Assembly: GCA_964612665.1 (NCBI GenBank)
Contig: CAZTCI010000001.1
Span: forward strand, 508,896-572,895
Length of the DNA stretch: 64,000 nt
Direction of reading: 5' to 3'
Source of the DNA: an uncultured Planctomycetales bacterium
Lineage (GTDB): Bacteria > Omnitrophota > Gorgyraeia > Zapsychrales > JAHFFX01
The translations under genes were made by a program, and so were the position numbers. The notes under the pieces were generated by a model. That model ran no database searches. It saw only the letters and a list, made by a program, of their open reading frames with translations, and was not told where the DNA came from. This document shows positions 30,001 to 54,000 of the stretch, piece by piece (the first letter of the stretch is position 1; each line of letters starts with the position of its first letter).

Positions 30001-33000
30001 TTGCCGAACGGCTTGGTCATTGTGCATTGTCGCCCAAACACTATGCATGCGCTCTTCAGGAAATTCTTCTGTAATTCTGGTGTAAATCTTTGACATTTCA
30101 AAAAGCGGTTCGGCTCCTGCTCGCAAGAACACAATACGCGTGTTCTTCCGGTATTGCTTATTCTCTTCGTGGGATCGAGGATATTCTTTGATACGCATGA
30201 ATACGTGTTGTATGAAATCCATCAATCCCAGTCTGCGCTCGGCGCCATGACCCAAAAATGTCGTCAAATGTTTAGTATCCAAATAGTGTTGATACGCTTT
30301 GGCAAACATTGCTTGATCCCCCGCAGAAAAGATTCGTCCGAGGGATTGAATACTCTGATTACGCGCGCGAACATTATCTTCATGTAATCTGAGTCGATTT
30401 AATCTAACCGAGGCAATGGCCGCAAATCCTGCCAGGATTTTAAAGATCAGCATTACACCCTTGATGCCGATTATGATCCACGCGGCGTCGAGGGTGAGGG
30501 CGGGAAGCTTTCCAACATCAGATGTTGGAAAGGGCGGGTTCAACCTGCGGGGTTGATGTCCGTTGGCATGCTTCTCTTGCGGATGGGTGAACTTTTCCGA
30601 GGAAAACTTCTTTATATCTTGGTCGCTCCACTCTTCTCCAAACACCTTTTTTAAATCCGATTTATTTCCGTTCTTTCCGTTCCTCTCCTTCTTTGCCAAA
30701 TCGTCATAGAATTTTTTCATGATCTCATCTTGCCGACGATCGAACTCCTCGGCGGAGAGAGACCAGTCATCTCGCTCTCGTTTGTATGCTTCCTCCGGTT
30801 TCCGATTCTGATTTAACCAAACGTCCTTAAGAACATCGTAGAGATTACACAACATGCGATTCCCCGCAAATTGCCTTAATCCCTCCCGATTGTCCTTATT
30901 CTTCAATATAATGCGGGCCATTTTAGTCTTCTCGAGATCCTGCTTGAGAAGGTGAACTAGGGCTTCATGGCGTCCGAGGTTTATTTTGGCCTCCCCGAAC
31001 ATGTCTTTCACAATTTGAACAAAAAGCTCAGGACCGATCTCCCTCATCGATAGCCAGGCATGCAAGACGATTTCTACTTTTTCTTCCTCGCTTTGAATAC
31101 GATGATGCCAAATCCAGATTTCATCAGAATTTTTGAGACCGCCAGAGGCATGGGAAGATCGAGAAAGGTCCCCATAGATCACACCGACGACGAAGAAGAC
31201 CACGATCAACATTTGTATCGGCGAGAGAACCGTCGACTCCACTCCCAATCCCAAGGCATTCATGGCCGTTGGTTTCCCGGGCCCGCGGAATGCTGTGAGT
31301 TCATTCAACCTGCGGGGTTGATGCCCGTCGGCAATTTCATTCGAAGACTTGATGTGGCGGAATCCTCGGTCGGAGATGTTCAATGTGAACCCATCCTCAT
31401 CAGAGAAACTACTGTAAAACAAAATCTCCCGGGCCAAATACGTTTCGTTAAACTCGATGACCAGCGCCTCACGCTTTTGGCCCATCTCCAACAGATCGTT
31501 CCACAAGAATGTTCTTGAAAAACGAAGTTCGCCAGCACCGATACGAAACGTAATGATGATGTCATTTCCGATGAGCCGGCCTTTCACAAAATAGATCCCT
31601 TGATCTTCCGTCACAATCCGGATTCTGGAATGTCTCAACAGCGTTGAAATCGGCAATTTGATTACTTCTCTGATATGATAAACTTTCTGGAGGGAATATT
31701 CGGCGTAGAAGGACAGCTCGTCTGCATCTGGAAGATGAAGGATAAAGTCATGAATCGGCGGCAATCCGCAGGCGGAATTGGTGAGCATGGCCATGATCAT
31801 AAAACGGATCAGCGTCGGGCTGCGAGTGAAACCAGCGACCTTAAGCCAGAATAGCCATACGATCATTGCCGTAATCAAAACGGCGAGGAAATATGCTAAG
31901 AAAGCAGCTGATAATTTCTCCTCAGAAGACGTCTTCCACCAGGTATATTTTTCCTTCATCTCATGATAGGAATTCAAAATAAGATTTAACGTTCCCTTCA
32001 CGCTTTGTTCCGTTGTCCCCCGCTCGGTGCTGATGTCTTGAATCGTCCATCCATTTAAGATCAGCGTAATAATCTCGCGCTGCGGCGGCGACATTTGATT
32101 CAATAGGGCCCGACGATGTGGATCCAATGATTGAGAATCGCGGATAATTTCGCCCAGGATTTGTTTCCGTTGAGAAGCACCCGCGCCTTGGAAATGAATG
32201 TTGATGCCTTCATGCAGCGGATATAATTCATCGCACCTTTCTTCCCGTTCAATTTGTTCTCTTAGGGGTTTCAAAGACAATTCGTTCTTAAGATCACGGT
32301 ATCTGAGTAATCCTCGACGGGCGGTGATGATCACCGTAGTCCACTTAATCTGCAATAGTCGGGCCACATCCGCCGGATGATAACCTGCAATGGCAAACGG
32401 AAGAATTTCTCGCTCCTTTTCCTCCAGCTGATCAAAGATCTCTCGATGGTCCAAGAGAAAATCTTGTTTAACCTCTCTGAGAATATTGATGAATTCTCGA
32501 CGGTTGGGAGATTTCAGGAAGAAATTGAATTCCGCATCTCGATCGTTGCGGATAACCATCATGGCCAACATGCCGGGTAAAAGGAGTATGACCAAAAAGT
32601 AAAGGCCCTGTATTTCTATAAAAATGATCTGTGTAAACGCGATCAAGACAAGCACGGACGGGAATACGGCGGAAAGTTTTTCCACCTTCCGATCTTGCGA
32701 TGTGGGGGCCAACTCTTTCTCAACAAGCTCCCCACGATATACCATCCGCTGAACAAGGCCCATCGGATAATTGATTTCTTTTAAGTCACCCTTATAGGCT
32801 TCACGCCGGATAACTTCATTGAGCAGGCGAAGTTTCTTTTTGATCTTTTGGACCTGATCTTTTTCTTGCGCACTTAAACTTTGATGATTAACGTATTTTT
32901 TGTGAAGTGTATAATCGTAAACGCTGAGCGAGATCGTCTGTTGTTCTTCTCCAACAATAACGACATTACCTTGATCCCCGGCTGGTTCGATGAAGAATTG

Positions 33001-36000
33001 ATACACAATTCCCTCAGCATAGAGATAATATTGGATTTGTGCATGGCTGTTATTAAAAATGCGGATATCATCAACCGAAAGATAATGCGGCCCATCAGGA
33101 TGATTGTGCAGGTCCAAATAAACGAGGGGATAATCTGGATTTAGTTCCGGACCGACGGAATCCTTATCGCCTTTGACGATACTGTAAAGGTCCCCTTCCA
33201 AGGATTGATGGGAAACTTCAAAAGGTAAATATCCAGAGGCGACGGTGTAAAAACGATCAATCGCGCGCCAGAACTCCGGCGTCCCGACGGCCGCGGCAAA
33301 TGGTCGAGCGCTGTAGCGTGTTCCTTCCTTCGCACTAATAATATCCTGCTTTATCTGATCGAGCGTCATGACTGGCCGACGCTGGATCCGGGAGATAAAC
33401 TTCCGACGGATGAATTCCTGGGCTTCCAGTTCATGGACGGCCATACCGATTATCGCGACCGCCGTCAGGCCGAGCAGGCTAAGCCAATCGGTATAGGCGG
33501 AAAGTTTTTCCACCTTCCCAACCCCGGAGGTTGGGGAGGATAATAATTTTTGGCTAAGATCTGCAGCCACATCCAAGTTTTCCAACACTTTCGTCGCATC
33601 TTTAGAACTTTTAATAAAGACAACCGCCTGAGAAACCGCCGCCGATATTGTTTCTATTTCGCCGATCATCGGAAAACTTCTCTTCCAAATAGCAAACTGG
33701 TGATTCCACGCAGCCAAACGCAGTTTGATGGCCAGATACCTCTTATCGGCCCATAACTCCTTCACTTGATCTCGGGCATGGACCATCGACGGGATTCGGT
33801 CCAAGGACAGGAGCAATCTTTCCTGATTTTCCCGTCGTTGTGCTTCCTGAAGTTCCCGTAATTCTTTTCTAATTTGCTGTAGTTCTTTTAAACTATGGAA
33901 CAATTGCTCAGTGGACGGGCCTTTAAGGACCGTCCGCGACATAGCTGCTGCCATTGCCCCCATCCCAGCAGAGAGCAATATCTTTCCGACGGGGATTCCA
34001 AACCATAACGCGGTCCCCCCATCTACACCTACGAGGTAAAGATGGATCCCCACTCCATACAACGCCAGTGCAATCATGACGGATGGAAATATGGCGAAAA
34101 GTTTTTCCACCTTCCCAACCCCGGGGGTTGGGGAGGATCTGAGGATCACCGCCAGCATTTCAATTAGTCCAACCAATCCCTTAAACACAATCCAAATCCA
34201 CACGGCTTCGATCGTGACGGCGGAGACGTTCTCGATGGGATTGTGATCGAATTCTTCTAGCGCATCGATTTTTCCGTATAAATATTGGGCCAAATGGCGG
34301 ATATCTTTTCGATAGTCGTGCGTCTTAACCAAATCCCAGAGGTTCAATTGTTCCCATTGATCGCCGGCAGCTTCGAGAGCTGCTTGGATTATCTTTAACC
34401 ATTCCTTCGCATAGAATTCTCGATGACGGAAATTGGACGCCACAATCCAGTGCAGTAATTCTTCTTCGGAAGATGTCTTCAACATCTCAATCGCGGCCCG
34501 GCGTTTGGCTGGCGAAGTGACCACCAAATCATTCATCCGCAAATGCTCGTTGAGAATGTGCTTCAGGCGCCGAGTCCTGGCAGAATTCGCCAAGCTGGTT
34601 TTATTTGTGAAGTCATCAAGAGAATTGAACGGATTGTTTAGCTTGCGAACCATCACCACAAATTCGGTCTGCGTCATTGTAAATCCACTCAAAAGAAAAT
34701 CCACCTCATCAGCGTAATTAAGGAAATATAGAATTTGTTTTTTGGTGTTTTTCGGGTGCTTCTGCAATTCTCGACGATGTTGCTCCGCATTTTCTTTCTT
34801 CTCTTTTCGTCTTTCGTTCTCTTTCTCTAAATCCGCCCGTGCCCTTTCACGAGGATTCTGAAATAGAATCTCTCGACGGTTTTCGGACGTTCGTTCCCAC
34901 GACATCGCAAAGACAAAGATATATGCCAGCAACATCCACGGACTGAACAGATAAGTACGAACTCCGGAATGATGGACGATTTGTTTCTGTGGAGTTTCTT
35001 CTTTAGTTGACAAGCCAACTTTCAGGGCTTGGGCGCGGCTGGCGGAGAGGTAAATCAACCGTTGAACAAACATGCCCGCGATCATCAGCACCGTAAAGAC
35101 ACTCATTCCCGTCGATAAATCGATCGTCACGGCGCGGTGTTTTTCGATATCAGAAGAACGACTTGGTGTTTTATCTTGTGCATTCAACCTGCGGGGTTGA
35201 ATGGACATCCTGTTCCCCTTCACACCTCCGAGGCGCGAAAGAGCATTATTTCTTAGCTTTTTACGAATACTTATAATTTTTAACACTGAACGAATATGCC
35301 ATTCTCTTAGCCCCAACCGCTCTTCCCGGATTTCTAATCTATCCCCAGGATATTTTTCAAAATCTGCAGTCACAATTTCGATAAGCCGTTCCCTTTTTTC
35401 TAGCTTTTCTCTTAAACGCACTCCCGCGGCTTTCTGCTTTAAGAACGTTAAATCATAATCCGGCCATATTTTGCTAATAATGTAATTCGACACTTGTTCA
35501 ATGTATTGATGCGATGATCCCATCTGTTCGACAATGATGCTTGATGATTGATCCAAAGCTATTTTGCGGACTAACACTTCTTTTTGCGGGAGCGTTAGTC
35601 CATACCTATCTCCTATATCGTTAAGGGTCCTTACAAGTCCTTCTTTAGTGATGGCATAGCCACTACTCTCCATAATGTCGCGAGCAAAACTTACTCTATT
35701 ACCATGCTCCATCGCTGTCTCCTGAGACGATAGAGAAGATCGGTATTCCTGGATCCCTTTTTGGCGATCTCGGTTTCGCGCATATGTATTTCGTTCGCCT
35801 CGAATTTTTAAATTAATTCCATTAACGACATATGTCAATAAGCCTACGCCATTGCGCCGATCAAATTTGATCACACTGCTGCGAATAGTTTTAATGAAGT
35901 CATCTGTTCTTTCCTTTAGGAAGGATCTATTCCATCTCTGTTTAACTAAGGGCATTTCTGTCAGACCGGCGATGAGGACTTCCATCGCCAAACCATCTTT

Positions 36001-39000
36001 CTTATCTTGAATAAGGTCAATTAAACGGCTCTGTTGCTCACGGCTTAAATATCCTCTGGAATGACGTGGCATGCCCAAGATCGTATTGACAGCGGCTTCA
36101 TCTCTTTGCTGAGGAGCCCAAATAATTTTAAGTTTAGACTCTTTAATAACCGGCACAGGAGGATTCAGCCCGTACCATTTCTTCATTTCATAAAGAATTT
36201 CTACTGAGCTTTTTCCTTTTAGATCGTGATTTTTTGCCCAGTTCAGCAGAAGCCCCTCTAAACATTTTCCTCCAAACCCTGGAATACCTGTATGAATAAT
36301 ATCGCCCACTTTTAAATCTACTATCTTCCCTGCACGGCGATGATTGGCTAGATGTTGAAGGATCGCCCATTGCAACCGCTCTTCAAGTTTGTCCCAGGAG
36401 AATTTCCTCGCCCGTCGGAATTGATCCAATACCGTTTCCAATTCTTCAAGGGTTACTGGTTTTTCTTCTGCCATCGTCATAAGAACAGCAGATGCGCAGA
36501 GGACTGCTATCCACGCTTCCGCACCTACGAGGTGCTGATGGGTAACCATGGCGACGAAAGCGGCGGAAATGATGATAAAGCGGAAGACTCCGTCGAGGAA
36601 ATCATTCAGTCGGCTGGGTTGAACAAATACAATTCGACGCAAAATGGAATTCACATTGTCTTGGCCGACATACGCAAGCGCCGCCGCAATTCCTACCAGA
36701 ACAAAAATCCATAAGGATGGACCAACGGCCATCAGTTTTATCTCTCGATCCCAAAACTGACTTGGCCCACACCGGCGGACAACAAATTTCTTTTCCAAAT
36801 CCTCTTTGACCGTCGTCACATCTTCTTGGACGATCGCGTCCGCCACACGTAAAGAAAATCCCATTTGCAGGGCCTGACGGCCGGGCATGGATGGGCTATA
36901 TCTCAAGCGAAGCCCCTGAATCAACGCGCGATAGGGCGCTTCCTGTCCCCGGAGAAACTTAAGGAAGGCAAACTGTTTGATTTCTTTGGTGGATACGGAG
37001 GTTTCAATATTATTTCTAAGATACGCTAAAAATTCTTTGTAATAACTGACCCAGTGCTCAAGGATTCTTTCCAGCCCCAACTCATTTAATTGTTTGTTCA
37101 AACGATTTGTGTTCCCAAAGACCAAATCTGTCGGTTTAAATTTATCAAATGTATCGGAGGTAATAGGACTCAATAAACAGCGCTCATTTAACGTTGATAC
37201 ACTGAGCTCATGCTTTTCGCCCCCGATTCTGACCCACCGCCCCAATCCCCGTCGGGCCAGGGCAATGAGATATTCGGGTTCGATATCAAATTGATCTTTC
37301 CCTTGATAATAAACGTGAATGTCCAGGTCCTTGATCATGGACCACAATGGGATTTGATTTTCGCTAAAAAGATAGGTCGAGGAGCCGGTGACCGTGATGA
37401 TCGGAGCCTCCACAATGGATAACGTAGCGACTTGCTTTAGAAGTTCGATTAAATCGACCGGCGGTAAAGCTGGATTGTCTGGCTGAACAATAAACTGGCG
37501 CTCAGGACGATAGTAGGAAATGTGTTCATCTTGGTCCACGATCAAAACAGGCCAATGCACTGTTTGGACCGCCGCCAGTAATATCAGCGCGTAGACCGCC
37601 TCGTTCAAACCGATCAGATCTCCGTGGGCCAAAAGACCGGATAAAGCCGCGAGGATGGCGATAGGGCGGAAGAGTTGTGCGATCAACCTGCGGGAGTGAA
37701 CAGACTTGATAAAGCGGAAAATTCCGTCGAGGAATAACATCACCCTCTCCGACGGCGGCGAAGTCTTGAGAAATTCGTAAAACGCGCGGAGGTTTTCAAG
37801 GATGACGCGGGATTTGGAGATTAGAACAGCGGCCATCAAAACAATAATGAGAATTTCCGCGAGGTGAAACACATTATTCGACGAAAAATTTGATTTTCTC
37901 GTCGGTCTTATCCGTGCAGTCGAAAGGAAATCGATTCGATGGGCGTTCAACGTCGCGGCATCTAATAATTCAAACCCTGGGAATGTTTGATCGACGATAT
38001 GTTTAATCAAATCCGCCAACTGATCCGCAGGGATTTTGATTAGATATCCTGGAATTCGGTGCATCTGCTGAGGACTAATTTCCCTCATCTCTTCTGCAGT
38101 CAAAAATTGAACCGCGGCCATCGATACAACCCGGCCTTCTAATCTGTTGACAGTCCATTTTCGCGACATTATACTTTGAATCGAAAAGGAGATAGATTGA
38201 TGACTTCTCTTCAAGATGCTATGAAAATCATTAAACCGCTTCAAAACCGTTTCAAGAAAAGCCATAAGTCCAGAAGAAAAACGAAGATTGCCGACGATCT
38301 TTTGGGTGCGTTCAAAGGTGCGACCGAAGGTAAATCTTCCAGTCAATGTGTTCGAGAATTGAGAAATTCTTCTTATGGTAAGTTTAAATAACCCTTCCTT
38401 GCTCTTGGACTCCGATGTCCTTGTCAGCTGGTTGACGCTCGAAGAAGATATTCTTACCCATAAAAAGCTCTGGGAAGCTCCCCACAAAATAATGACAATG
38501 GTTGAGGAAAATTCTTCTCTCGGTTGTTCAACGATTATCAATCTTATGGAAATCAGGTTTGTGTTGCGTGCTAAGAAGAAATTCAGTGAGCATAAGATTA
38601 CATCTTCTCTTAATAAACTCTCCGAGATTCTGAAGCTATTCATTCCAGATGAAATCAACCTATTAAAGGCGAATGAACTCCAGTCCAAATATCTTTCATT
38701 ATCGCCAACCGACGCTATCCTTCTGTCTGTGGCCACAACCCTAGACAATGTTGTCCTAATCACCCGCGATCGAGAATTATTGAAAGCTGCCTCAAAAATT
38801 GTCTCCGCATCAACTCCTGAAGAATTTCTGGCGAAACGCTGATCTCTTCTGTTCCAATAAAAATTCCCCACCAGCATTGCAATTAGCCCAACCACTCCCT
38901 TAAACACAATCCAAATAAAGCGGAAAATTCCGTCGAGGAATAACATCATCATCTTCGACGGCGGTGAGGTTTTAAGAAGTTCGTAGAACGCGCGGAGGTT

Positions 39001-42000
39001 TTCGAGGATGACGCGGGATTTGGATAGCAGAACAGCGGCAACCAAAATAATGATTAGAATTTCCGCGAAGTTAAAGGAGTTATTCGTTGGAGAATTCGAT
39101 TTACCCGTCGATCTCGTGGCGAGAGCTCTGCTGTCCTGAGATCTTCTTTCTGTGGTGACGAAAGTTCCTACCCTTCTTAAAATTTTGATAACTCTATCCC
39201 TTCCCTGAAGGTTATTAGAACTCTGTCGAGATTGGGGTTGTTCAACGATCGGCAAAGTGACGAAAAAGCTGGCGCCCTGGCCCAACTCGCTCTCCACATC
39301 AATCTCTCCATTGTGCGCCGTAATAATGCTTTTCACAATGTAAAGTCCCTGGCCGGTCCCGTCTTTTCCTTTCGTCGTGAAATATGGCTCGAAGATTTTA
39401 GAGACCAGCTCGGGCGCGATCCCGGGGCCATTGTCTTTCACCTCGAATTGCACGAGGGGCGCATTGTCGATTGGCGTGACGATCAACTCAATCTTTCCGT
39501 CTGGTATCTGCGCTAAGGTATACACCGCATTCTTTAGGAGATTGATAAACGCATGCGTCATCTGAATTTGTTCGACATCGATTCTAATCCCGGCGGCAGC
39601 GGAAAAATCAATCTGAAGTTGCTGTGGATCGAAGAGAGCGAAGATCTCTTCAAAATGTCCTCTAAGATTAGTCAAGAATTCCTCGACGGAAATGACTTTC
39701 TTCTTACCTTTCCCGGAATAACTGAGATAAAAATCAATGATTATTTTAAGCCGGTGGGTAACGCTGTGGAGGGTTTTGAGGACTTCACGCTTGGCTTTAG
39801 GCTCAACGATACCTTGATCGATATTTTTGTCTTGCGGATGCTGGCGGAAATCTTTGACGAGCTGCTTCCAGGCGCGATGAAACTTTTTCAGTTCAGGTAA
39901 ATCATCGAGAAGGATTTGCAACGCCAACATAATTAACCTTTCGCGCTGTTCTTGTGTAAACGGTTGGGCATAATTTTCAAGCACCTGTTGTAATGCCGGA
40001 TTGAATAACCCACCTATTGGCCTTTTCTCTCTTAAAGATAAGGTTGTTCTGTCATGCTCGGGGAGAAAAGGCCTAATACTAGACTTTTGCAATGCAAAAG
40101 TCAGTAATAACTCCGCTCGCTGTTCTCCTGTAAGCAGCTCAGCATATTTTTCAAGCATCGCCCGTTTTAATTCTGGGTTTGATAATGACTGAATATCGAC
40201 ATAAGGTTGATCAGATGCGGCATGGTTGCGAAGAATCTTCAAATCATTAATTTTCTCGAGAAGATTTAAATCCATAATATTCTCACTCAAAGATTGCATA
40301 GCGGATTTGAATGGTTCCGGCAAAATATCGGCATTACCGTTTGCCGGATCAAAGAATAAAGTAATCACGGTCAAATCATTGCCGATTTCATGCAGGAAGA
40401 CCGGCCCCAAATCAGCGATGATCCCCTGCCAATAATCTTCTTTTGGTATCCGCATTACCATAACGACAACCATCGATAGTCCCAGCAGCCAATTGAACGG
40501 CATAATGTATACGGCGTTTCTCTCGGTTGGGAGCTTCATAAATACATATTCCCTTCTGGCCACTGTCTGAATTTCAAGACCAAGCGGCTTTCGGTTTAAC
40601 GTTTTGAGCATTTGGGTGATAAAGTTTATCCGCCGCAAAACTGATGTGATCGGCATGCTGCTGCCATCACCCAACGTCGTCCCTGGTTTTTCTTCCAGCA
40701 GCATCTCCATGGTCTGCCCAATAACTGTCAAGGCCCCGGACAGATTTATGACGACGGGCCCGTCTGTAATAGAATTTCTAAACGCCGTCCCCATCACATT
40801 GCTTTTCCGCACTAAAGCGATCAAATCCTTGGCCTTTGGTGTCGTATCATTGCCAAACACAGGGTCGGATTCTGCCTCCTGCTTGACGTTTAGCATTGCT
40901 TCCAAAATCAATCTTGCGGACTCGCGTGCCCGTGTCGGATCTCCTAACGCTTCGCGTTGGCCATTAACAAATTTAACGAACTTAACCAGCTCCGTGCGCA
41001 GAGCCTTAATCCATTGCGGCCATTCTAGGTAATAAAATAATTGTTCCAGGACTGCCATAATAAGGAGCGTGCGTTCTCCGACGGGTTGGATTGGATTTCT
41101 AGATATTTGTTCTTCTTTCTGTTCAATGTCTAGAATCAAATGCCAGACTGGCTCTACAAATGCTTTCCTCTCAAGCAAGCCCCTTGTATATTTGAAGAAA
41201 TCATTCTGAGATTCATGATGACGCAATACTCGACGGGCAGCCAAACGGGCCATGGGATATTTCATGGAGCCGATTAAATCAGTCAACGTAAGATAATTTT
41301 TTACAAAGCTGCGCAATCCTGGCTCTTCAATCAATCCTTTAAACTCAATCAGCTCGGAAATAAAACGGAAATAGAAAACAAACCGTTCTCCGCCGGCCTT
41401 ATAAAGGATCCGTTTCCTTCCCGTGGCGGAAATAGGCCTATCATTTAAAACTTCGATCAGCCAAGCAGCGATCAAAAGTCTTAATGCCTCCATGTCCTCA
41501 TCCTCAACCGGCCCACTTAAAATCCACGCGCGTTTTTCGTCGGTGGAAAGGGCCAGGAGATTATCGAGACCAGTATACTGGCCGCGCACCGCCATCAAAA
41601 ATACCGGAGCGCTCAGCAACATCAAAGACATTCCCATCCATAAAACGGTTTTGATGGCGAGTATAACCAACATCAATCCGCCCACGGCGCCGACCAAGGC
41701 GATGGAATGCAATTTCTCCTCGAGCTGCGCGATTTTATTTTCTATTCCATTTGTCTTTTCAGATTCTTGGTCTTTCTTCCCGTTTCCATTCAATTCAGTG
41801 GAATACGCTGTCAGAGTGAATAATTCTTTTAAGTCCTCTTCCCATTGCTTATGAAAAGGAAGGCTCTCTGCATATTCCTGGAAGAGACCTGCGCGCAGCT
41901 GACGCCACACCATATGGTCGAGCAAGACCTGACCATTGATGACAAATGCCTGCGCAAAGTGTCTTAATTCCTCGACGTAGGCCGGATATTTCTGTGAGAT

Positions 42001-45000
42001 CTTTTGTAAAGAAGACAATTCCTCGGATAGAGAATCTTTCTTAAGCAAAGCATCCACGTATTGTTCAATCTGTTGGCTTTTAGCATAGTCATGGTCTTGC
42101 GATAAACGGATACGTTCTTCAATACGATCCGTGGCTGTTTCAAAAGCAATGATCCAATCGGCATCAGAACCGGAGAATTCCGAGACATAGCTTGATACCC
42201 TGGACTTTAATAAAAGCCTGTGCGTCGTCCCGGCCTCACCGTTACGGGCGATACGGGCCATGATTTGTCGCATATCACGTTTGGAAAAAAGAACGTTGTA
42301 AAGAACAGCCACAACGCCGGAGGCAACATTGGTCAAAATATTCACCCCTCGGCCTCCCATGGGACTGGTAATAAGAATCGTAATCTGTAAGCGGCCTTTC
42401 TGGTTAATAACATAACCGGCCTTTTCAAATTGACCGGCTTCTTCCCTGCGCTTTTCAGGATTTTGATCGATCCCTAAAACAGTCTCAATCTTGATATCAT
42501 TGTTGGGCCGGCCTCTTTCCAAGATGGCGTTTAATAGTTCCTTGACATGATGGGCCGAAGCGATATCTTCCGTCGCGATAAAAACCGGCCTTCCTGACAA
42601 TAAAGCATTCATAACAATTTCGATTAAGCTTTGGTCCATCTCTTCCACGGTCTCATATCCGATGGAGGAATGATCAACCCGGATGGATTTGATATCGGAG
42701 GGTTGAACATACACTTGCATGTTCAATCTTTTCTTTAAATGCTGTTCAATCGTCGGACTCATCTCTGAACCACTGACCGCGGCATAGCCATGTCTATACA
42801 ACTTTAAAAGGGAGTGATACGTCAAGGCCGCCAAAAGCCGGCGCGGATTCTTTTCATTGTCGATACCGGAACGCGCTTCTATCATACGTTGTACCTCGGG
42901 AGAATAAACACGCAAAATGTCCGGGCGTTTACTATCGTCGGGAATAGGCAATACATTTTCACGTTTAGCATCTAAACAAAAATCATGATCCTCTTTAAGG
43001 TTCCAGCCAATCACCGCAAAGTCCGCCAGCTGACGCAAATGCGCATCAGAGATTTCATCTAATTCCCGACGATTTCTAAGAAATTCCATAATCTTCCGCG
43101 GGTCACGCCAAACCACTTGTCTTCCCTGATCGGAAGAAATAATCTCTTCGGGATTCGTAGCCCAATCTTTCAACAAAAAGAAGACGTCCTTATCAAAACG
43201 ATGCCACGCTGTATAGGCTGCGATAATTCTCTTCACTAATTCTTTATCCTTACCGTTGACGATGATGTCGATCGACAGAGTATTCAAGACGGAGAAGATA
43301 TCCCAAAGATAATAATCCGCCTCATCCAATAAAGCCCGACGATCAATGGTCAATGGTTGTTCTAAACTTTTTCTGGTCGAAATTTCTCGCGCCAGGGCTG
43401 TTAAAGAAATATATCGGATCTGTGCTTTGCCGGCTTCAGCCCAGAGAGAGGAACCAAAAAATCTAGTGAACCTTTTTGACTGGCCCGGAATAAGTAGTGT
43501 ACGGGACCCTTCGGTGATGCAGCTTACGGAATGCCCCAAAGAAGCCAAAATCCCGGCCTGACTGTTAAAGCCGTCTTGGGCCAAATGATCTGTCGTGGTG
43601 ACGATATCCGTTGATACACCCATTTTCTCCAGAGCATCGGCCGCCATCGACAAGGCCATGGTTTTTCCGGCGCTGGTATCAAACTTGACAAAATATCCCC
43701 GCGATCCGTCTTCGGTCCTCGGTTGCATCAAGAGTTCAGCAGTTTTAAGTTGTGCGGGGCGGCGTTGATACTTAATCATAATATTCTTATCAGCCATCCT
43801 TCGACGCGCAATGACCTCAAATTCCTCTAATGATTCCCTAATTACGTCGGGAAAATATTCGCTCAAGGATAAAGGCAGATCGGTCCACGCCACGCCATTT
43901 TGTATCGATGTTTTAATAATTTCTTTTTGTTCACTGAATACGTTCAGTTGAGGGGTGGGAGTCTCGTCGATCTCCCCAATGATATTCGCGGGCGTAGATA
44001 AAGATTCCATCTGAAGTCTTTCTGCCTCCTCTTCCAACGGCGAAACTTTTTCCGGACGCTGGAACTCAAACGACATCTCGGGTTCAGGAGGCTGAAAAGC
44101 AATTCCAAAATAATGGGCGAGATGATGGACTGACTTAAAGAATCTTTCCATTGATATCTCAAATCTTCCTTGTTCATAATTCTTCACTGACGACTGGCTT
44201 AATTGTAGAATTTCGGCAAATTGAGTTTGAGATAAGTCCAGCTCCTTACGAAGATGGGTTAAATTCAAGAGATATTTTTTCAGTAAAGCATTCTGTTGGC
44301 TGTTTGGAGAGGATTTCGCTTCTTGTTGAACATCATTGATGAATTCTTTCACTTCCGTCGGGACCTCACTGGAAACATTGTCCATTAAGAAATCTATAAC
44401 CTTCTTCATTGACTTTGCGCTAAGTTTCCATGCCTTGGCAGAACTTGCGTGATCTACAATATATTTTTGCCCTCCCATCGACGCGATCATTGTCTCGACA
44501 GAGTATCTCTGCTTAAAACGATTTAGTAAATGCTTAATCGGCTCGCTCAATCTCTTAAAAATTTCGCGTCGTTCTTCTCTTGATGCACGCAAAGCTTGTG
44601 CATACAAAAGCTGTATCTGCTGCTTCCACTGCTTAATGTCTCGAGACCACTCACCAATGGGCTGAACATCCTCATTCTGCCCACCGAAAGTAGAGATGAT
44701 GATAGATTCATCGATGAGCTGAACATTCTCATTCTGCTCAAAAGCGATAGGAATCTCGTCCGCCTCTTGTAATGAAATCAAGCTAGAGATTGGCTTTTCT
44801 TCTTCAATGAACTGAGTATCCTCATTCTGCTTACCGATCAAACTTTCATCGACCTCAGGCAAAGTTAATTCAAAAGTCGTTTCTTCATCGCTTTCTGGAG
44901 TAAGGATGATGATAGATTCATCGATGAACTGAACATTCTCGTTCTGCTCAAAAGCGATAGGAATCTCGCCCATCTCCCCAATTCCATTCGTGGGCGGAGA

Positions 45001-48000
45001 TAAAGATTCCATCTGAGATATTTCCGCCTCCTCTTCCAACGGCGAGACTTTTCCCGGAAACTGGAACTCAAACTTCATCTCGGGCTCAGAAGGCTGAAAA
45101 GCAATTCCAAAATAATGGGCGAGATGATGGACTGATTGAAGAAATCTTTCCATTGGTATCCTAGATCTTCCCAGTTCATATTCCGACACTGACCACCGGC
45201 TTAATTTTAGAATTTCGGCAAATTGGGTTTGAGACAAGCCCAGCTTCTTACGAATGCGGGTTAAATCCGAAAAATATTTTTTCAGTAAAGCATTCTGTTG
45301 GCTGTTTGGAGAGGATTTCCCTTCTTGTTGAACATCATTGATGAATTCTTTCACTTCCCTTGGAACCTCACTGGAAACATTGTCCATTAAGAAATTGATG
45401 ACCTTCTCCATTGACTTTGCGCTAAGTGTCCCCGCATCGGCAGAACTTGCGCGATCTACGATATATTTTGTTACTCCCATCAACGCCATTTTCTCGACAG
45501 AGAATTCTTGCTTAAAGCGATCCAGTAAATGCTTAATGGGCTTGCTCAATCTCTTGCGTTGTTCTTCTCTCGACGCACGCAAAGCTTGGACATACAAAAG
45601 CTGCATCTGATGCTTCCACTCGTTAATGTCTTGAGACCACTCACCCATGGGCTGAACATCCTCTTCTTCTTTCCGTAGAATTTCTTCCGTCCGTTGGGAC
45701 TCAAACTTCGTTGCGGGCTCAGAAATCTGAAAAGAAATTATTGAAAACTTTTGAAAATAATTCTCCACAATTCTTTCTAATAACGGTGTTTCCTGCATCC
45801 TCCAAGGACGAATTGTTTTGCCTTTGTCCAAATCATTCTCATCGCGATGAGAAAACTTCGCCATCCCCAACATCACGCCCGCGAATCCCAGAAGATTAAT
45901 GAACGCGATGAAATCCATTGCATAAAAATGCGCCGTTCCGATCATGGCCAGGATGGATGCGATGATCTTTACAAAAATTCCGTTGATCATTGTAAACAGC
46001 ACCATCGCTCCCATAACGACCGACCAAACCACCCAACCACCGGCCACGTTGAGAAATACGATAGAAGACAATGTGCTTATCCCCGATGGGACCAATTCAA
46101 GTTGCTCTGGATTGGTTTGAGCAATATAAGATCTAAATATATATAGTTTCTCAAAGTAACTTTTATTTATGTCGGAAACGAGATAATCTAGACGATGATG
46201 ACTAATTCCCTTTAATCCTTCCAACCGTAACATCGCATTAACAAAATTCATGGCTAATGAATTATTGCCTTTGCGGAATAAAAACCATTGGCTCGATTCA
46301 TCGTGCCCAAAAGTGCCTAAATAGAAACCAAAAATGCGTTCAATACGACTATTGATATCCTTCTGTTGCTGACCGTCCTTGACCCATTCCCCCAGATGAT
46401 TCATCATCTTGAGAATCCGTCGATGAATATCCTCTTTGGATCTCGCTCTCAGTTCTCCTGCGACATTCAAGGCATAATCCTCACTTGGATAAAAGCGTTT
46501 TCCGTCCTTGCCTAACAGAAGAATGATATTAAAATTCTTAAGCCAAATTAAGAAATCTTGGGTCGTGGTTATACGGTCCGAGACGAAATTGAATAACAAA
46601 CGCAAAATCTCTCCTCGAACTTCGTGGGAATTAATCCAATAATTCCTCTGCTCATCCATCGACGGCCATATTGCTAAAGTCGAAGGATCCGGGTTTCTGA
46701 TCATTTCTTCTTTAGGTAGCTGTAAGGCATTTTCCCAATTCCAAGTCGGCATGGCCCGTTTGAACATCGCCAGTTCTTTTGTCGCCACATCAACAGAAAC
46801 ATCCCGGTCTTGCTGAAGAACCGGATCAAAAATCACAACAGTTGGATTTTCCGAAGTCCCCTTCACTGCCATCCTCACAGCACCCGCCATAACGATCGAT
46901 GCGATCCCCAGATAACCAATCATCGAATGCCCAAGCCAGGCAGCCGTCAATACCTCCAAAAGCCCGGTAATTCCGACGATAAGAACCCAGTGATACCACT
47001 TTGCTTGAGCCAATAGCTCATGGAAAAATTCCTTTGTGTCTTGAACGATGACCTTCCAACTCAGCCTGGTCCTCCATGCCCGTTTCCACTCCATGACCAA
47101 GATGAGGAATTGAATCAAAATAATCAGGCCTGTTACGATTGTGATGACAAGATCGGCCGTCGGTGAAAGTTCCTGTTGGGGCACCACATAGGCCGCCTCG
47201 GTCAAGCTTGGCAGAATCCCCTGCAAAAACAAAACGCCGGCAAGCACCAACAACAGCGCAATAGCCACGAATACGAAATCAAAAATTCCTGCTACCGTTA
47301 CCAGATCTCCAAATCTCTCAGAAAACTTCGAAGATAAAATCCGTGCATTCCAGCCAAACGGAGAAACGAGGCCTTCATCCCCTAGGTGGATTTCCGGTAA
47401 ACGTCTCAAATCCAAAATCAAATGATCCTGGCCAGCCACTTGGCGTTCTTTTATTTGGTAAATTCCTCTGAAAAAGTCATTGTTCCGTAAGAGAAGATAA
47501 TCAAATTGGGCGGCTAATGTTTTAAGGAAATTGTTTTCTGGTTTGAAGAAGTCCCGCGCTCGACGGTACATTCTTTGTTTGGCCTGCGTTTTGTTCAGTC
47601 CTTCATGTTTTTGATAATAGGCGCGCACGGCCTCGTGGTTATATCCGGCCATATGATAGACGCCGAGCTTAACGATCCTTTCGTTGAAATAAAGCTCAAG
47701 CGATACGAGACTTGACTCTTTAGATGATCCGAATAGATCAATCGAGACAAGATTTAAATTTTCATTAACCTCAATCTGTTGAACACCGTCCCAATCGTGA
47801 GTTAATTCCAAAACCCATTGCTTGAAGGATTCTGATAATTGATCATCATTAACAAATCGCATCGATGCCAGCGTCGAAGAATTTTGGTCCATCATTCCCG
47901 CGGTAACAAAAATCATCGCCCACAACACCCCGATTCCACCTACGAGGTGGAACGTGGTCCAAACGGCGATTAGGAAGGAAGGTATAACGGTGAAGCGGAA

Positions 48001-51000
48001 TAATTGATCGAACAGCGGCGCCGAAATCTTCGCCGGGACTTGGGTACGTTTGGCGGTATTTATAATCAACACAATAATGACAACCGCCAGCGCCAACATG
48101 GTAACAGCAAGAAATTTCTTATTTGTTGATTCAGGATTGCTTTTTTGGACCGATGGTAAGGATGTCCACGGCATTAAGACTCCATCGACTGAGAATCGCG
48201 CTGCCAAGGCTTCCGGCGACACGACGTAATTTTGCGGGAGAAATATATCCGCCAGAAAGTTCGGGTCTTTTTGACTTCGACCTTCTGCAGTTTCTACTCT
48301 GATCAGTAAAGAAAAGACATAAACCTGAAGAGGTATGACATTTATATCTGTCTTTGCGTCTTTCAAGACGGCTCCGATATGATGGAAACTAACAATCTTA
48401 TAAATTGTTTCATCATCAGAAAAAGCAGCCGTATCGTGGAGAACACCCGCCAACCATTCTCCATAACCGATACGCTTTTGAAGGTCCATGAGATGCTCGG
48501 ACCGGATGCCTCCAGCTTTCTCATATTTAATATCTTTGATATACCCTGCCCCTTCCATTCGCATAATTATAGCGGCCATCACTTTAATAAAGTCGCCAAA
48601 TAAAGTATGCGCCAAATCCTCCGACGGAATATCAGATACATTTCGAACACCTTTCTGAGCGTAATGTTCCAGTATGCTAAAAAAGGCCTTACGACCTTCT
48701 CTCAATGAGCGACCGAGATAAGGAAATTGAGTTAAATAATCGGCACCCGCCAGTTCCTTGACCAACATGCCAAGAAGAATCGTCTTTAAAATCTTGCTTT
48801 CTTCGCTCGAATCCTTTGTATAACGAATTAAAACAGGAATAATCCTCGGATTAATTAGAAAATCAAATTCAAGATATCCTTCACTGTTGATTGCGAATCC
48901 TTGATCTGTCATCTGGGGAACAATCGCGATGGGTGATTTGGAATCTCTGGGAAGAAAATCAAACTTACCGGTCATTCGCTTTAGGATTTCAGCCCAGCGC
49001 CGTTCGCGCTCATCGGAAGAATGAGCCCATTGAGCGGCTGTTGTCTGGAAAAATTGTCTAATAACCCGTTTAATTTCTTCGGGAGAATCAGGTAAAGATT
49101 CCTTTTCCTTGCGGGAAACAGCAGGAACGGAATTCGATGGTGCGGCAAATATGAGCGTTGATGTAAAGAGGAAATGAACGGCCGTCAGAAGAATCAAGAT
49201 CTTCTTAGAAATCGGCGGCGGTGAATTCTTCTGACGTTCAAAATAGCGTCGAAACTCGCTTAGACTCATCAATCCGCCGGCGAATCTTCTCCCAATAAAT
49301 ATAAGCATTACAACAACCACGCCCAGAATCGCATACCCATCTACACCCCGGAGGTGTAGATGGGTAACAGGATTTTTCTCTGACTCAAAATCACTTTCAG
49401 CAAAAGCACCTTCCAAAAGTGCGCCGACACGTTTCAGCCAAACATCAAAGTCAATCGCTTCATGCTGTGCCAACCACATAATGGCCTGCTCGAGCACTTT
49501 CACATGCCGAGGAAGTGCTTTTTGTTTCCAGGCCGGTAACGCGTTATAGGCCATGACATCCACTTGGACGCGGGCCGTTGTCCAATTTTCCTGTATGAGC
49601 AATGCGCGTACACTGCGCAAGACGTCTGCGCAATTTTCTATACCAATCGCATCAGTGAGAAATATGTCGATGTGCGTTGCATTCTCTTCTTGGGCTTCTA
49701 CCTTGGCCCATACATGAACAGCCGAAAGGTCGCGGTATTCAGCGACGACGGAATTCACCAGATCAATCAACGCGCTGCGGTCGTCGCGGTGCATGGTCAA
49801 TGCAATGTCCTGATTTTCCAAAACATCTTTGAGATGAAGCAGGAAGCTTACAACTTTATACGTGCCGGCCTGCGCAGCGAGTTCGATGCCTCTGGAGACA
49901 ATTTCCATGCGGACAACTGGATTGCGAAATTCAACAGCTGTCAGACCTAAAAGATCGTTGAGCGCAACAACGCTCGGTGATCTGTGAATCTCGTCGGATA
50001 ATTGATTCATAACAGTCAAGACACGATCCATTTCTTCTGTTTGAGCTTCGATAGCCGCTGACAAACCGTTAAGTATGTATAAAATCCAACGGAATTCTGG
50101 ATTATATTGCTTAGTCATCGCTGATACTATTGCCTTCGCCTGTCGAAGCGGCGCTCGAGCCAGATCTATTTGATCATTTGAATAGTGACTCCAGGCCAAG
50201 TACACGTAAGCAGCCACTTTTTGCGGTTCTAAAATATTTAATGATGTGATCGACGTCCAGCGTCTCACAGCTTCATCATATTCTTTTTGTTCAAAACTAA
50301 TTCTAGCCTGAGCGATTGCGGTCAAAGACAACACGCGGCCCTTTATGCCCAAATCGGAATACTGCTGGCTCCATGCTTTCAGAAGCCTGATTCTCTCGAC
50401 GGCAGATTCGAATTTCTGTTCCGTAATATCTATGATGATTCTGTAATAATTGGCCAGAATGTCCAACTCGATATAGCTAAAGTGGGGATGAAACTTCTGG
50501 GTCAGCATTGGCTGATAATGTGTCACATACCGATTGTTGATAGCGAGCGCCTGCACAAACGCTTGATTAGCTTCTACATAATGTTGCTGATCAAAATGAA
50601 TCATGCCTTTAAACAACGTAAACCATGCTTGTTCCAAGGAATCATCAGGGAATTTTTTGATCGCTTGATCGGCGGCCTGCAAAGCGGCTTCAAATTCTTC
50701 AAAAAGGGCCAAATGTAAGACCTTTCCAGTCAACTGCACAGACATGTCATCATCTTTTTCTGTCCTTTGTACCAAAACGCTCTGTTCCTGACGTGACAAC
50801 CATATCTCGACGGCATTTTGCACTTTCGCGACATCCAGGTTTTTCACTCTCGTCGCTTTCGAAAGAACAGCGCGTACCGTCGCTTCGTTTTGAATGCCAG
50901 CGACCAATGTTCTTAACTCCTGATCACTCGGCTGACCGCTTGGCAGATTCGGCAAAACATTCCGCAAGGCTCGACGCAGAGACGCATAATCTGTTTTGGG

Positions 51001-54000
51001 TCTGCCGGATGATATGGCCATGGCGAATATGAACATCAACAAGATAACCATCTCTAAAGACACAGGGTGGGCTTGCATCTGGTTGTTACCGTCGGCCAAT
51101 CGCATTGATCGGTTGTGTTGCGGATGTTTTGTTGCCAGGTTATTCTTTTGTGGACTGCCACTGACGACTTGTTCTGCCGCGATAAGACATTTCGTTCTGT
51201 CTTCTTTAGGTAGATACAAACACTTCACAACCAAATCAAGATACTGTCTGGCCAGCTCTGGATTATCAGAATTACTGCTCATTTGTCTAGTACGCTCGAG
51301 TACTATCCCCGCGAGAATGAGGGTTCCTTGTGGCCCTGTCCATAGAATGCGTCTGGCTTCCACGTTTTCTAATCTTTCTTCCGGTCGGAGAATTTGCCGC
51401 ACAAGAAAGCGGCCGGATTCAATCCAATCCAGCTCATCACGATTCCAGGCAATACTGCCATCCGCCGCCGCGTTCACGGCCCGGTAAGCGCGATTAAATG
51501 AGGTGTCTTTGCTATACCAAGGAATATTGCTCAAGATAATTGACCCGATGAAAAACACAACAACAGTCCTGCCGGTCATATTCAACAATCGTCTTATCGA
51601 TTCTCGCCATGACCATCCTAGCATCGTCGAGGGCCTCGCAAATTCCCGATGACTTTCGAAGTAATCAGAAAGCAGTAACCACACAACAAAAACCACAAAC
51701 AACCAAACACCATAGTGCTCAAAGAACGGCTGTATCAACTGTATATCGAAAAGATAATTCTTGTTTTCGACAACTTTGAAAATCTTCCAATCATGAGTTG
51801 AATAAGATCCTAAAGGATCTGTGCCGATAGACCCTTGGGCCACTTCTACCAATTGCCGTCGGGCTTTGTTAAGCAGTGTATTTAATTGATGCAGGTAGAC
51901 CTGAGTATCTTGCCATTCGATTGAAGATCTTTCTCCAGTTTGTTTATCGGTAACTTCCTCATAGTGCGTATACCATCCGACAATAAAATAACCGTTTAAT
52001 CTTAATATCCGCGCGATTGAATCAAGCATGCGTCTTTTAACGTCTTCCTTAATATAAGGACTCGAAAAAATGCTCATGGCAACGATTACAGCCACTGACT
52101 CTTTGCCTAACAAACTGTTTTCAAAATAAGCTTGAGCCCGTGGAAGGACCTGGAGTTTAGGCTCTCGGGCTGCACGGTTCTGCCAAATTTCATGGGAATT
52201 AATTTCTAGCGGATTGGCATCGGAATCATCGGAGGGTTGATAGATGATCAATTGATCGATGTGACAAAGAAGCATATCCTCCCATGGGATCTGATAAAAG
52301 TCTGACGGATTAGCGCTGGGTCCGATTGAAACCGCCCGCTCCCATCTGGATTTTTCAAGAGCGTTAATGGCGTTTCGCGCCCGCTGATAATACTCGGGGA
52401 CAAACCCGCTCGCCAAAAGTTCGCGTATACGAGTTCTCCTCTGCATTAGATCAATCCGCCTTTGCCGTCGAATTTCTTCCTGAAACTCTAAAATTGAACC
52501 TCGAGGATGTGCCCCTGTTATCCGTGCCCAAATATAATTCGCCCCAAGAACGAGGAAACCAAACACAATAATCAGGATTATTACTGCGGTTGAGTTATCA
52601 GGGATAACATTCTGCTGAATGAGAACATCCGTGATCGCTCCGGATGAGATGGCGCGATTAACTTGGGCGGTACGAGGAGAAGGAATCGGGATAATCTGCT
52701 CGCGCCATGCCATCAGCGGTTGATTAAACTCCACATTTGGATTTCGGAGTTGGACGGCTTCCCACATCATCTGTCTGATCTCTTCCTGCCTAAACTGACC
52801 ATCAAAATAATTATGTGAAATACCGTTGAGGTTATGAAGCCGCAATAAGGCGTTAACAAAATTCATAAATAAAGAGTTGTTACCTTTTATCATAAGGTTC
52901 ACGGCACGATTATTCAGATGTCTAGAAGAACCGATATATCCATTGATAATAAAATCAACGATTTCAGCCAATCTCAAATCGGAGGCTTCCGGAGTTAAAA
53001 TAGGAATGAAACGTTGCCAGATGGCTGCCGATAGTTGTAGAGAGAATTCTTTGGGATAACGTGTTGTTCCGGCGACGAAGCGGATGGAGCGTTCGTCCCG
53101 CTTTTGGGCGCCGATCATGGTGGGGGTGATGTAGTATGAATCGCCCAGTCCGATGATAACAATTTTGTTCAAGTACCGGAACCATTGCAGAATGTCTTCT
53201 GGACTGCCGATTGTTCCTTCGTTTTGTGCCAGAATCATCTTTAGAATTTCTGGCCTTACAGTTTTCTGATTTTTCCAGTAATTTTCTTGGTTGGGTGTTT
53301 CGGGCCTAATTTGACGTTCAGGAAGTCGAATAACTTCGTTCCAAGGCACCTCCAAGGCCTTTGTAAAATTAAAATAAGGGAATGCTTCTTGGAATCTCTT
53401 CGCCAGATTTTCATGGTCTTCTGCAGAATCCCCCGCAACACTACCGACGGCAACCGCCAATGCCGCTGCCCAAACCCAAGCGCCGGACAATCCGGCCGTC
53501 CATAACTTAATCAGTGCCATGATTACAGCAGTCACGGCAACCGGCCCTGCGCGAAGTTTGATTGTCAGGACGATAATCGCCAGAATAACGAGGAATCCGC
53601 CGATGAGATACGCCGATGATTCTTCTTTTTTGCTTGAAGTATTTTGAACGAGACTCGAAATCGATTGTGCCTTCTCTTCTTCCGCTTCCTTGCGCAAGCG
53701 TTGCCACATCCTTCGAGTTTGTGTTTGAAATCTGGGAGTTTGAACTCGTCGATATAATTTATTCAAAATATATTTGGCTTCCGATGATAACTGATGAGAT
53801 TGCTGCACCAACTCCCCTTGACGCAGGTTCAGCACATACTGCAAATCTTCTTCTCCTAATAAAAATGCAAAACGCAATTCTTGCAATAAAACATGCGGGT
53901 GGGCATGCATTTCTTCATAGTACCGTGACAGTAATCTCATTCTAGCCGCTCTTCCTCTTGACCAAGAAGGATTGAACACCTCATTCCAAATATTTCTAAA

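Follow-up and report, generated by a model that had tools for sequence, protein, structure and literature searches.

A divergent SecA-type motor core embedded in a giant, transmembrane-rich reading frame

Giant proteins of Omnitrophota contain numerous transmembrane (TM) regions, and most of the giant genes carry divergent SecA DEAD and preprotein-binding domains without the scaffold/wing; these SecA domains form a long-branch clade apart from the normal SecA of the same genome, and it has already been proposed that they serve to export the very protein that carries them (West-Roberts et al. 2023, bioRxiv 10.1101/2023.11.21.568195). A 2026 catalogue of long proteins contains a PF07517 architecture cluster of 20 proteins among 779 Pfam-positive long proteins, as well as TM-anchored long proteins with regulatory and metabolic domains on the cytoplasmic face (bioRxiv 10.64898/2026.06.07.730766). 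In SecA, the two-helix finger enters SecY and contacts the substrate, and IRA1 restrains the ATPase (PMC3101351). The one evident hint at how cells could make proteins tens of thousands of residues long, and insert them with their dozens of membrane passes, is a SecA-derived motor built into the protein.

The window (the whole 64-kb stretch of DNA analysed here) consists of a single minus-strand reading frame of 21,333 codons that is free of stops and open at both ends, and conventional ORFs are almost absent from it because this one frame occupies it entirely. An explanation by faulty assembly or annotation, with the SecA-like module being an ordinary small gene, has a likelihood of virtually nil and was rejected: the frame has zero stops over its whole length, compared to 849-1,344 in each of the other five frames; the module has neither start and stop boundaries around it nor the canonical SecA termini; and a similar architecture was assembled independently in L001 and L033, on two contigs, 98% identical. 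The giant ORF has approximately 80 hydrophobic TM-like segments (Kyte-Doolittle) and a mosaic of Pfam domains, all recognisable ones being cytoplasmic in type: several XRE helix-turn-helix (HTH) domains, Sigma70_r4, GerE, HATPase_c, REC, FAD/NAD-binding, transketolase and methyltransferase. The SecA-like module lies inside the protein, followed by at least 14,000 aa that include dozens of TM segments, and a search for a second such module elsewhere in the giant ORF found none. An uninterrupted soluble segment of approximately 1,390 aa (aa ~6050-7434) houses the motor and two HTH-bearing tandem repeats, which have 76% amino acid and 86% nucleotide identity to each other and match HTH_3/HTH_19 with E values of 3e-16 and 3e-14 (Pfam). 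TM segments bracket the motor (Table 1) and would keep it at the membrane; for the downstream hairpin (aa 7435-7470), the Kyte-Doolittle means over 19 aa are 2.34 and 1.94.

The first-pass annotation had proposed a divergent SecA DEAD-like motor at 42230-43800 and had quoted four motifs, all of which were located in the giant minus-strand frame in the order of SecA: TSAGKT (aa 6775-6780, nt 43660-43677), VTTTDHLAQDG (aa 6800-6810), LLDEADYY (aa 6890-6897) and MGGRGVNI (aa 7214-7221). The span was well chosen: on the minus strand it opens shortly ahead of the Q motif and closes where motif VI ends. The proposal itself holds, with SecA placed first by sequence, profile and fold searches. When the query was 767 aa (aa 6634-7400), SecA_DEAD (PF07517) was matched by Pfam with 25.3 bits (E 1e-5) compared to a gathering score of 24.6, over positions 90-156 only of the 290 in the profile, and P-loop_SecA with 23.2 bits (E 6e-5); when the query was a 5,000-aa piece, SecA_DEAD scored only 23.2 bits, below the 24.6-bit threshold, and the Pfam-level match is borderline. 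The best eight models in NCBIfam were all SecA or SecA2 (E 3.5e-14), and the module scored 52 bits with the full-length equivalog TIGR00963, not reaching its 800-bit cut-off. The first 22 matches in a sequence search of the PDB were all SecA. An AlphaFold2 model of the module (pLDDT 68, pTM 0.67) was built from a SecA-dominated alignment, and its confidence is low in the tail and in the first half of the preprotein-binding domain (PPXD). In a Foldseek search with this model, the first 36 ranks all went to SecA or SecA2 (E 3e-27 to 1e-13), the next class being DinG/XPD, starting at E 9e-10. A generic DEAD/DEAH-box nucleic-acid helicase with a superficial likeness to SecA is very improbable and was rejected, because generic DEAD (PF00270, 15.9 bits versus a threshold of 26) and Helicase_C (PF00271, 13.8 versus 23.5) are both below their thresholds and SecA is ahead in all searches (Pfam, NCBIfam, PDB and Foldseek). 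The module is almost certainly a SecA-family motor core.

Module positions ~30-610 align contiguously with NBD1-PPXD-NBD2 of 118 SecA-family proteins (local iterative search), and the module retains the Q motif, Walker A and B, and motifs Ia, III, V and VI in SecA order along with both RecA-like lobes (Table 1); the NBD2 region was aligned to residues 330-541 of B. subtilis SecA in the PDB alignment. The insert between Walker B and motif III was matched by hhalign to the SecA-family PPXD with 96.5% probability (E 7.6e-10) using a clade profile, over the C-terminal ~70 columns only, and with 30% probability (E 5.6e-4) using the query alone. In this part of the insert, DFCLD...RVYSPEVQRMIEARSG corresponds to D-Y-x-V...GR...GLHQAIEAKEG of the canonical PPXD; the first half is unrecognisable as PPXD and poorly modelled (pLDDT 42-58 for module residues 201-250, versus 69-85 for 251-320). 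No Pfam match to the preprotein cross-linking domain (PF01043) or to the SecA scaffold/wing (PF07516) was found at E<=10 in aa 6634-7400. After NBD2, the AlphaFold model has only one moderately confident long helix; comparison of the tail with the C-terminal regions of 28 SecA-family proteins gave hhalign probabilities of 3.5% with the clade profile and 0.1% with the query alone, and in a search for a displaced scaffold/wing, an HMM of SecA-family C-terminal regions matched nowhere in the 21,333-aa ORF. The canonical N-terminal ~90 residues (the membrane/ribosome-binding helix), represented by an HMM of the N-termini of 51 SecA-length matches, gave only negative scores upstream of Walker A, and the SecA C-terminal tail (SEC-C) was not detected in the module. 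The module is the equivalent of the SecA N68 motor core, because the motor lobes and half of the PPXD are kept whereas the scaffold, wing and N-terminal helix are undetectable.

Table 1. Coordinates of the SecA-like module and its surroundings in the window
Feature	Residues (aa)	Position (nt)	Strand	Remarks
Giant gene hosting the SecA-like module		1..63999	-	Single uninterrupted frame, 21,333 codons
Upstream hydrophobic cluster, 2-3 TM-like segments	5977-6046	45862..46071	-	Membrane tether on the upstream side of the ~1,390-aa soluble segment
Two tandem ~197-aa units	6151-6347 and 6484-6681	43957..45549	-	XRE-type HTH in each; just upstream of the motor
SecA-like motor module, homology-supported core	6744-7345	41965..43770	-	
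NBD1, first part	6744-6905	43285..43770	-	hhalign 98.3%, E 1.8e-14 (query alone versus 35 SecA-family sequences)
Q motif, RRPAQL		43747-43764	-	Within first part of NBD1
Walker A, DTSAGKTM		43657-43680	-	Within first part of NBD1
Motif Ia, VTTTDHLAQDG		43570-43602	-	Within first part of NBD1
Walker B, LLDEADYY		43309-43332	-	Within first part of NBD1
Insert between Walker B and motif III, ~150 aa	6906-7054	42838..43284	-	Position and size of PPXD
Recognisable PPXD part of insert, DFCLD...RVYSPEVQRMIEARSG		42865-42984	-	C-terminal half only
Return strand of NBD1, and NBD2	7055-7279	42163..42837	-	hhalign, query alone, 99.4%, E 2.3e-21
Motif III, AVSGSE		42763-42780	-	NBD1 return strand
SGRPVFIAT		42571-42597	-	In NBD2
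Motif V, SPMGGRGVNI		42337-42366	-	In NBD2
Motif VI, RQIMARIARNGEAG		42229-42270	-	In NBD2
Helical tail, 155 aa	7280-7434	41698..42162	-	Without detectable scaffold/wing homology
First long helix of tail	7286-7320	42040-42144	-	pLDDT 63-71; rest of tail <50
Clade-shared tail motif, KYPAYVEEL		41965-41991	-	Common to P0002 and P0038
Tight hydrophobic hairpin, LVGAVGGLMLVILAIKTVLWMGMSLMLLSAPVFLMA	7435-7470	41590..41697	-	Directly after helical tail; downstream membrane tether

Fourteen columns are invariant in an alignment of the module with 37 relatives; all are located in the SecA motifs and the NBD2 core, and all are kept by the module: G-K-T, the E and D of the DEAD box, E453/G468/G494 in NBD2, the R-G of motif V, and the Q..R..R..G of motif VI. 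The glutamine of the Q motif, which is near-invariant among the relatives, is also kept. The departures of the module are TSAGKT for TGEGKT, SGS for TGT, and GVNI for GTDI (a change from D to N in motif V); in addition, the SecA signature IDEARTPLIIS has degenerated and motif VI lacks its first Arg. Only 40 of the 90 columns that are at least 85% conserved in 116 other SecA motors are kept by the module, the lowest number in the set (the median is 87). These departures could be signs of decay, as could the length of the terminal branch of the module (the longest in the tree described below) and the relaxed constraint on the nearby tandem repeats (dN/dS 0.61), if the module were left over from a SecA gene fusion, without catalytic activity and serving as a structural spacer only. 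Such a relic is improbable, as all residues directly needed to bind and hydrolyse ATP (Q, GKT, DE-D, S-G-S, R-G and Q..R..R) are kept, and the same ATP-site residues are kept in two relatives at 23-25% identity, whereas neutral decay predicts otherwise. Because it is exactly the ATP-site residues that are retained against a background of extreme divergence, the sequence argues for an ATPase that is probably active.

Only one of the 164 matches to the module at E<=1e-3 in a search of 1.84 billion representative proteins had E<=1e-10, and the closest match has 24% identity. Word-indexed searches for closer relatives, with either the single sequence or a three-member clade profile, gave P0001 and canonical SecAs only. 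In a neighbour-joining tree of 118 SecA-family motors (bootstrapped on 57 taxa, and with the published giant-protein sequences outside it), the module groups with the modules of P0002 and P0038 (bootstrap 91/100). Long-branch attraction is possible; at the level of sequence, the grouping is supported by four shared derived features: Q-x3-R-[IV]-[AG]-R in motif VI, ILS-x-LG after motif Ia, a motif III that begins with Ser, and [KR]Y[PS]x[YF]V[EH]xL in the tail. These clade-specific signatures, the first three of which can also be written Q-x3-R-[IV]-[AG]-x0-1-R, G-x-ILS-x-LG and S-[GA]-[ST], could serve to find more such modules. P0038 (6,657 aa with ~37 hydrophobic segments and with methyltransferase, SecA_DEAD and sigma-70 domains) is probably longer, because its frame is open to the start of its contig; a copy that is 98% identical (L033) is on a contig of 309 kb. 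P0002 is a complete gene of 1,932 aa whose product begins with a signal-peptide-like segment and is otherwise free of hydrophobic segments, and the module would therefore sit outside the cytoplasm there. The motor is the sole part that the window ORF has in common with P0038, P0002 and P0018 (BLAST versus the whole ORF); P0018 is another embedded SecA match, annotated as Candidatus Omnitrophota. A scan of genome contigs with the clade alignment identified 30 loci, all of them ordinary SecA-family ORFs (~690-855 aa where complete), and a scan of metagenome contigs identified L033 and L034, the latter a 690-aa frame ended by the end of its contig. The first-pass annotation had also called the module a marker of the class of giant genes. 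This is supported in part: a relative is found in the TM-rich P0038 (at least 6.7 kaa) and most giant genes carry such a module (West-Roberts et al. 2023), but most is not all, the only PF07517 figure in the 2026 catalogue is the 20-protein cluster among 779, and the clade-mates include P0002 at 1.9 kaa. Thus, the module is typical of long, often TM-rich proteins, and neither diagnostic of giants nor exclusive to them.

Most likely, the module would function as a membrane-tethered, ATP-driven polypeptide-clamp motor, acting in cis at the Sec translocon to help insert or translocate either segments of its own giant chain or partner proteins. The covalent TM tethers may stand in for the lost membrane-binding parts of SecA, and the ATPase would be poorly regulated and constitutively active because IRA1 is absent. 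As a whole, this explanation, in which a divergent SecA core is a tethered clamp motor acting in cis, is the best available and is judged to have an even chance of being correct. The push mechanism of canonical SecA cannot be assumed because the finger, scaffold, wing and N-terminal helix are undetectable. Self-export of the giant protein by the module, suggested in the first-pass annotation as it had been in the published work, is more doubtful: it is weakened by the missing two-helix finger and by the signal-peptide-like start of P0002, and only half of the PPXD is recognisable. In a parity-based topology made from Kyte-Doolittle segments, the side given to each Pfam domain flips with the threshold, and single and paired TM clusters occur in the giant ORF at approximately 50:50, a count compatible with long segments being either exported or retained. 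All recognisable Pfam domains are of cytoplasmic type. If most of the protein stays inside, only TM hairpins would need inserting, and insertion of TM hairpins normally needs no SecA. It is rather unlikely that a tethered SecA core devoid of finger, scaffold, wing and N-terminal helix is a cis-acting "auto-translocase" for its own chain; if this were true, the auto-translocase would thread the product of a >64-kb gene with ~80 TM segments into the membrane, SecA-type translocation would need no more than clamp and motor, and giant membrane proteins would owe their existence to this mechanism.

A smaller but appreciable chance is given to an active SecA-derived ATPase that has been repurposed outside export, whether as a membrane-tethered polypeptide clamp, as an unfoldase/chaperone, or as an ATP-dependent switch on the neighbouring regulatory domains of HTH and sigma type. 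The conservation of catalytic motifs while the SecY-engaging and regulatory parts are absent is consistent with repurposing, as are the two XRE HTH domains in the same soluble segment as the module, the sigma-70-like domain that comes after the module in P0038/L033, and the abundance of regulatory domains (HATPase_c, REC, GerE, Sigma70_r4) in the ORF; but to our knowledge there is no precedent for a SecA core as a transcriptional switch. In the AlphaFold model, the insert is flanked by predicted strands (module residues 171-177 and 319-326), and these strands together with the retained part of the PPXD match the polypeptide-clamp region of canonical SecA. Retention of this region suggests that the substrate is a polypeptide, which fits export just as well.

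Compared to canonical SecA (E. coli and B. subtilis; PDB 1tf2, 1m6n, 5eul, 3din), which is the best match in both sequence and fold, the module shares motifs Q, Walker A/B, Ia, III, V and VI, the two RecA-like lobes, and an insert at the position of the PPXD, but it has no detectable N-terminal helix, scaffold/two-helix finger/IRA1, wing or SEC-C tail, and it is covalently part of a membrane protein whereas canonical SecA is a soluble peripheral ATPase. The window offers a clean natural experiment on what SecA can do without: finger, scaffold, wing and N-terminal helix are lost, and the motor and one half of the clamp domain remain. SecA-N68 and the isolated DEAD motor of E. coli SecA (PDB 5k9t, 3bxz) offer a comparison in which N68 is a laboratory truncation, whereas the window module is natural and membrane-tethered, and has a non-homologous helical tail. 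Accessory SecA2 (M. tuberculosis, PDB 4uaq) is free-standing, is ~780 aa long, and keeps the helical scaffold. The module is less similar in sequence to SecA2 models than to SecA models. Two wing-less SecA-like proteins, P0001 (658 aa) and P0159 (629 aa), have PF07517, PF01043 and PF21090 but not PF07516, and like the window module are natural SecA derivatives without the scaffold/wing Pfam domain; they differ in being free-standing and near-canonical (TGEGKT, IDEARTPLIIS, MAGRGTD), and they fall outside the clade of the window module.

As in the published giants, the SecA motor of the window is part of a giant ORF rich in TM segments, is without scaffold/wing, and is adjoined by TM regions, the flanking TM regions of those proteins having been proposed as a membrane anchor. 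Its branch is also very long and appears separate from normal SecA, with long-branch attraction a possible cause. Unlike in the published giants, PF01043 is undetected in the window, where the PPXD is recognised by profile-profile comparison in its C-terminal half only; the module is internal, whereas theirs is near the C-terminus after the TM anchors; and the domains around it, compared by description rather than by sequence, are regulatory and metabolic instead of being involved in adhesion or carbohydrate degradation. A divergent SecA motor inside a giant TM-rich ORF agrees with the published descriptions of giant genes: the combination has already been described (West-Roberts et al. 2023) and is confirmed here, not new, and what the window module adds to it is confirmation and a finer anatomy.

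The giant ORF runs without a stop codon off both ends of the window, and the gene is therefore longer than 64 kb. It is nearly devoid of cysteine (35 of 21,333 residues, 0.16%), and the GC skew of the plus strand is negative throughout. GC content rises from approximately 0.44 to 0.50-0.51 in two patches (window 8001-10000 and 20001-22000) that coincide with a transketolase-like region (aa ~18014-18543) and a FAD/NAD-binding domain (aa ~14504-14565), domains that could be of foreign origin or under stronger compositional constraint. The longest ORF of the plus strand, antisense to the giant frame within a GC-rich patch, is most likely a chance ORF.

Coordinates of the giant ORF, its repeats and domains, and related proteins
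Feature	Nucleotides	Residues (aa)	Strand	Remarks
Giant ORF	window 1-63999		minus	21,333 codons, zero stops, both ends open
Longest plus-strand ORF	window 20245-21168		plus	307 aa, TTG start
Tandem ~197-aa unit, copy 1	window 44959-45549	6151-6347	minus	XRE-type HTH
Tandem ~197-aa unit, copy 2	window 43957-44550	6484-6681	minus	XRE-type HTH
Internal repeat		8296-8362 vs 8698-8764	minus	78% identity
Internal repeat		13683-13724 vs 14054-14095	minus	64% identity
Internal repeat		3536-3733 vs 5746-5938	minus	32% identity
DNA-binding/signalling domains		~1382, 6248, 6581, 10631, 11687, 15571, 16805, 8144, 21041	minus	giant ORF
P0038	L001 227-20200			giant-type clade-mate; 98% identical copy, L033, on a 309-kb contig
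P0002	L002 103-5901			clade-mate, complete, 1,932 aa
P0018		4373-4917		near-canonical SecA; NCBI MFA5339993.1, Candidatus Omnitrophota MAG, partial

Immediately upstream of the SecA-like motor are two tandem HTH units that share 76% identity as protein and 86% as DNA, with a dN/dS of 0.61 between them (Nei-Gojobori), which suggests a recent internal duplication under relaxed constraint; such duplication is one route by which giant genes may grow. Internal repeats were found window-wide, the three further pairs in the table being examples, and several contain hydrophobic segments of near-identical sequence (IWIVFKG[VL]VGLI..., WMMILNLAI[VI]L...), suggesting that the giant ORF is made in part of duplicated modules, each a transmembrane segment plus linker.

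Two proteins, P0038 and P0002, have SecA-like modules that group with that of the window. In P0038, a sigma-70 region-2-like domain comes after the SecA-like module. Its reading frame is still open where contig L001 begins, so that the full gene product probably exceeds 6,657 aa; downstream are ParE-like and MazE-like toxin-antitoxin genes, and the GC content (0.44) is the same as that of the window. The N-terminus of P0002 (MKATYKITTIFLILIFTGTSALSAP) resembles a signal peptide and is the only hydrophobic segment in the 1,932 aa of the protein; the usual rules would predict export of its SecA-like module, and despite this predicted export the module retains the ATPase catalytic motifs. The terminal portion of P0018, a partial 5,059-aa protein annotated as 'VWA domain-containing protein', is a near-canonical SecA with TGEGKT, IDEARTPLVIS and MAGRGTDI motifs and a scaffold-like C-terminus; thus, some long proteins of Omnitrophota bear a SecA fusion that is far less diverged than that of the window.

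The DNA-binding and signalling domains of the giant ORF comprise at least five XRE HTH domains, Sigma70_r4, GerE/LuxR, HATPase_c and a receiver domain, a density that is unusual for a multi-pass membrane protein. No adhesion or carbohydrate-degrading domain was detected in the whole of the giant ORF within the window, which in this respect differs from the published Archaeovorin and Dockerin types of giant protein.
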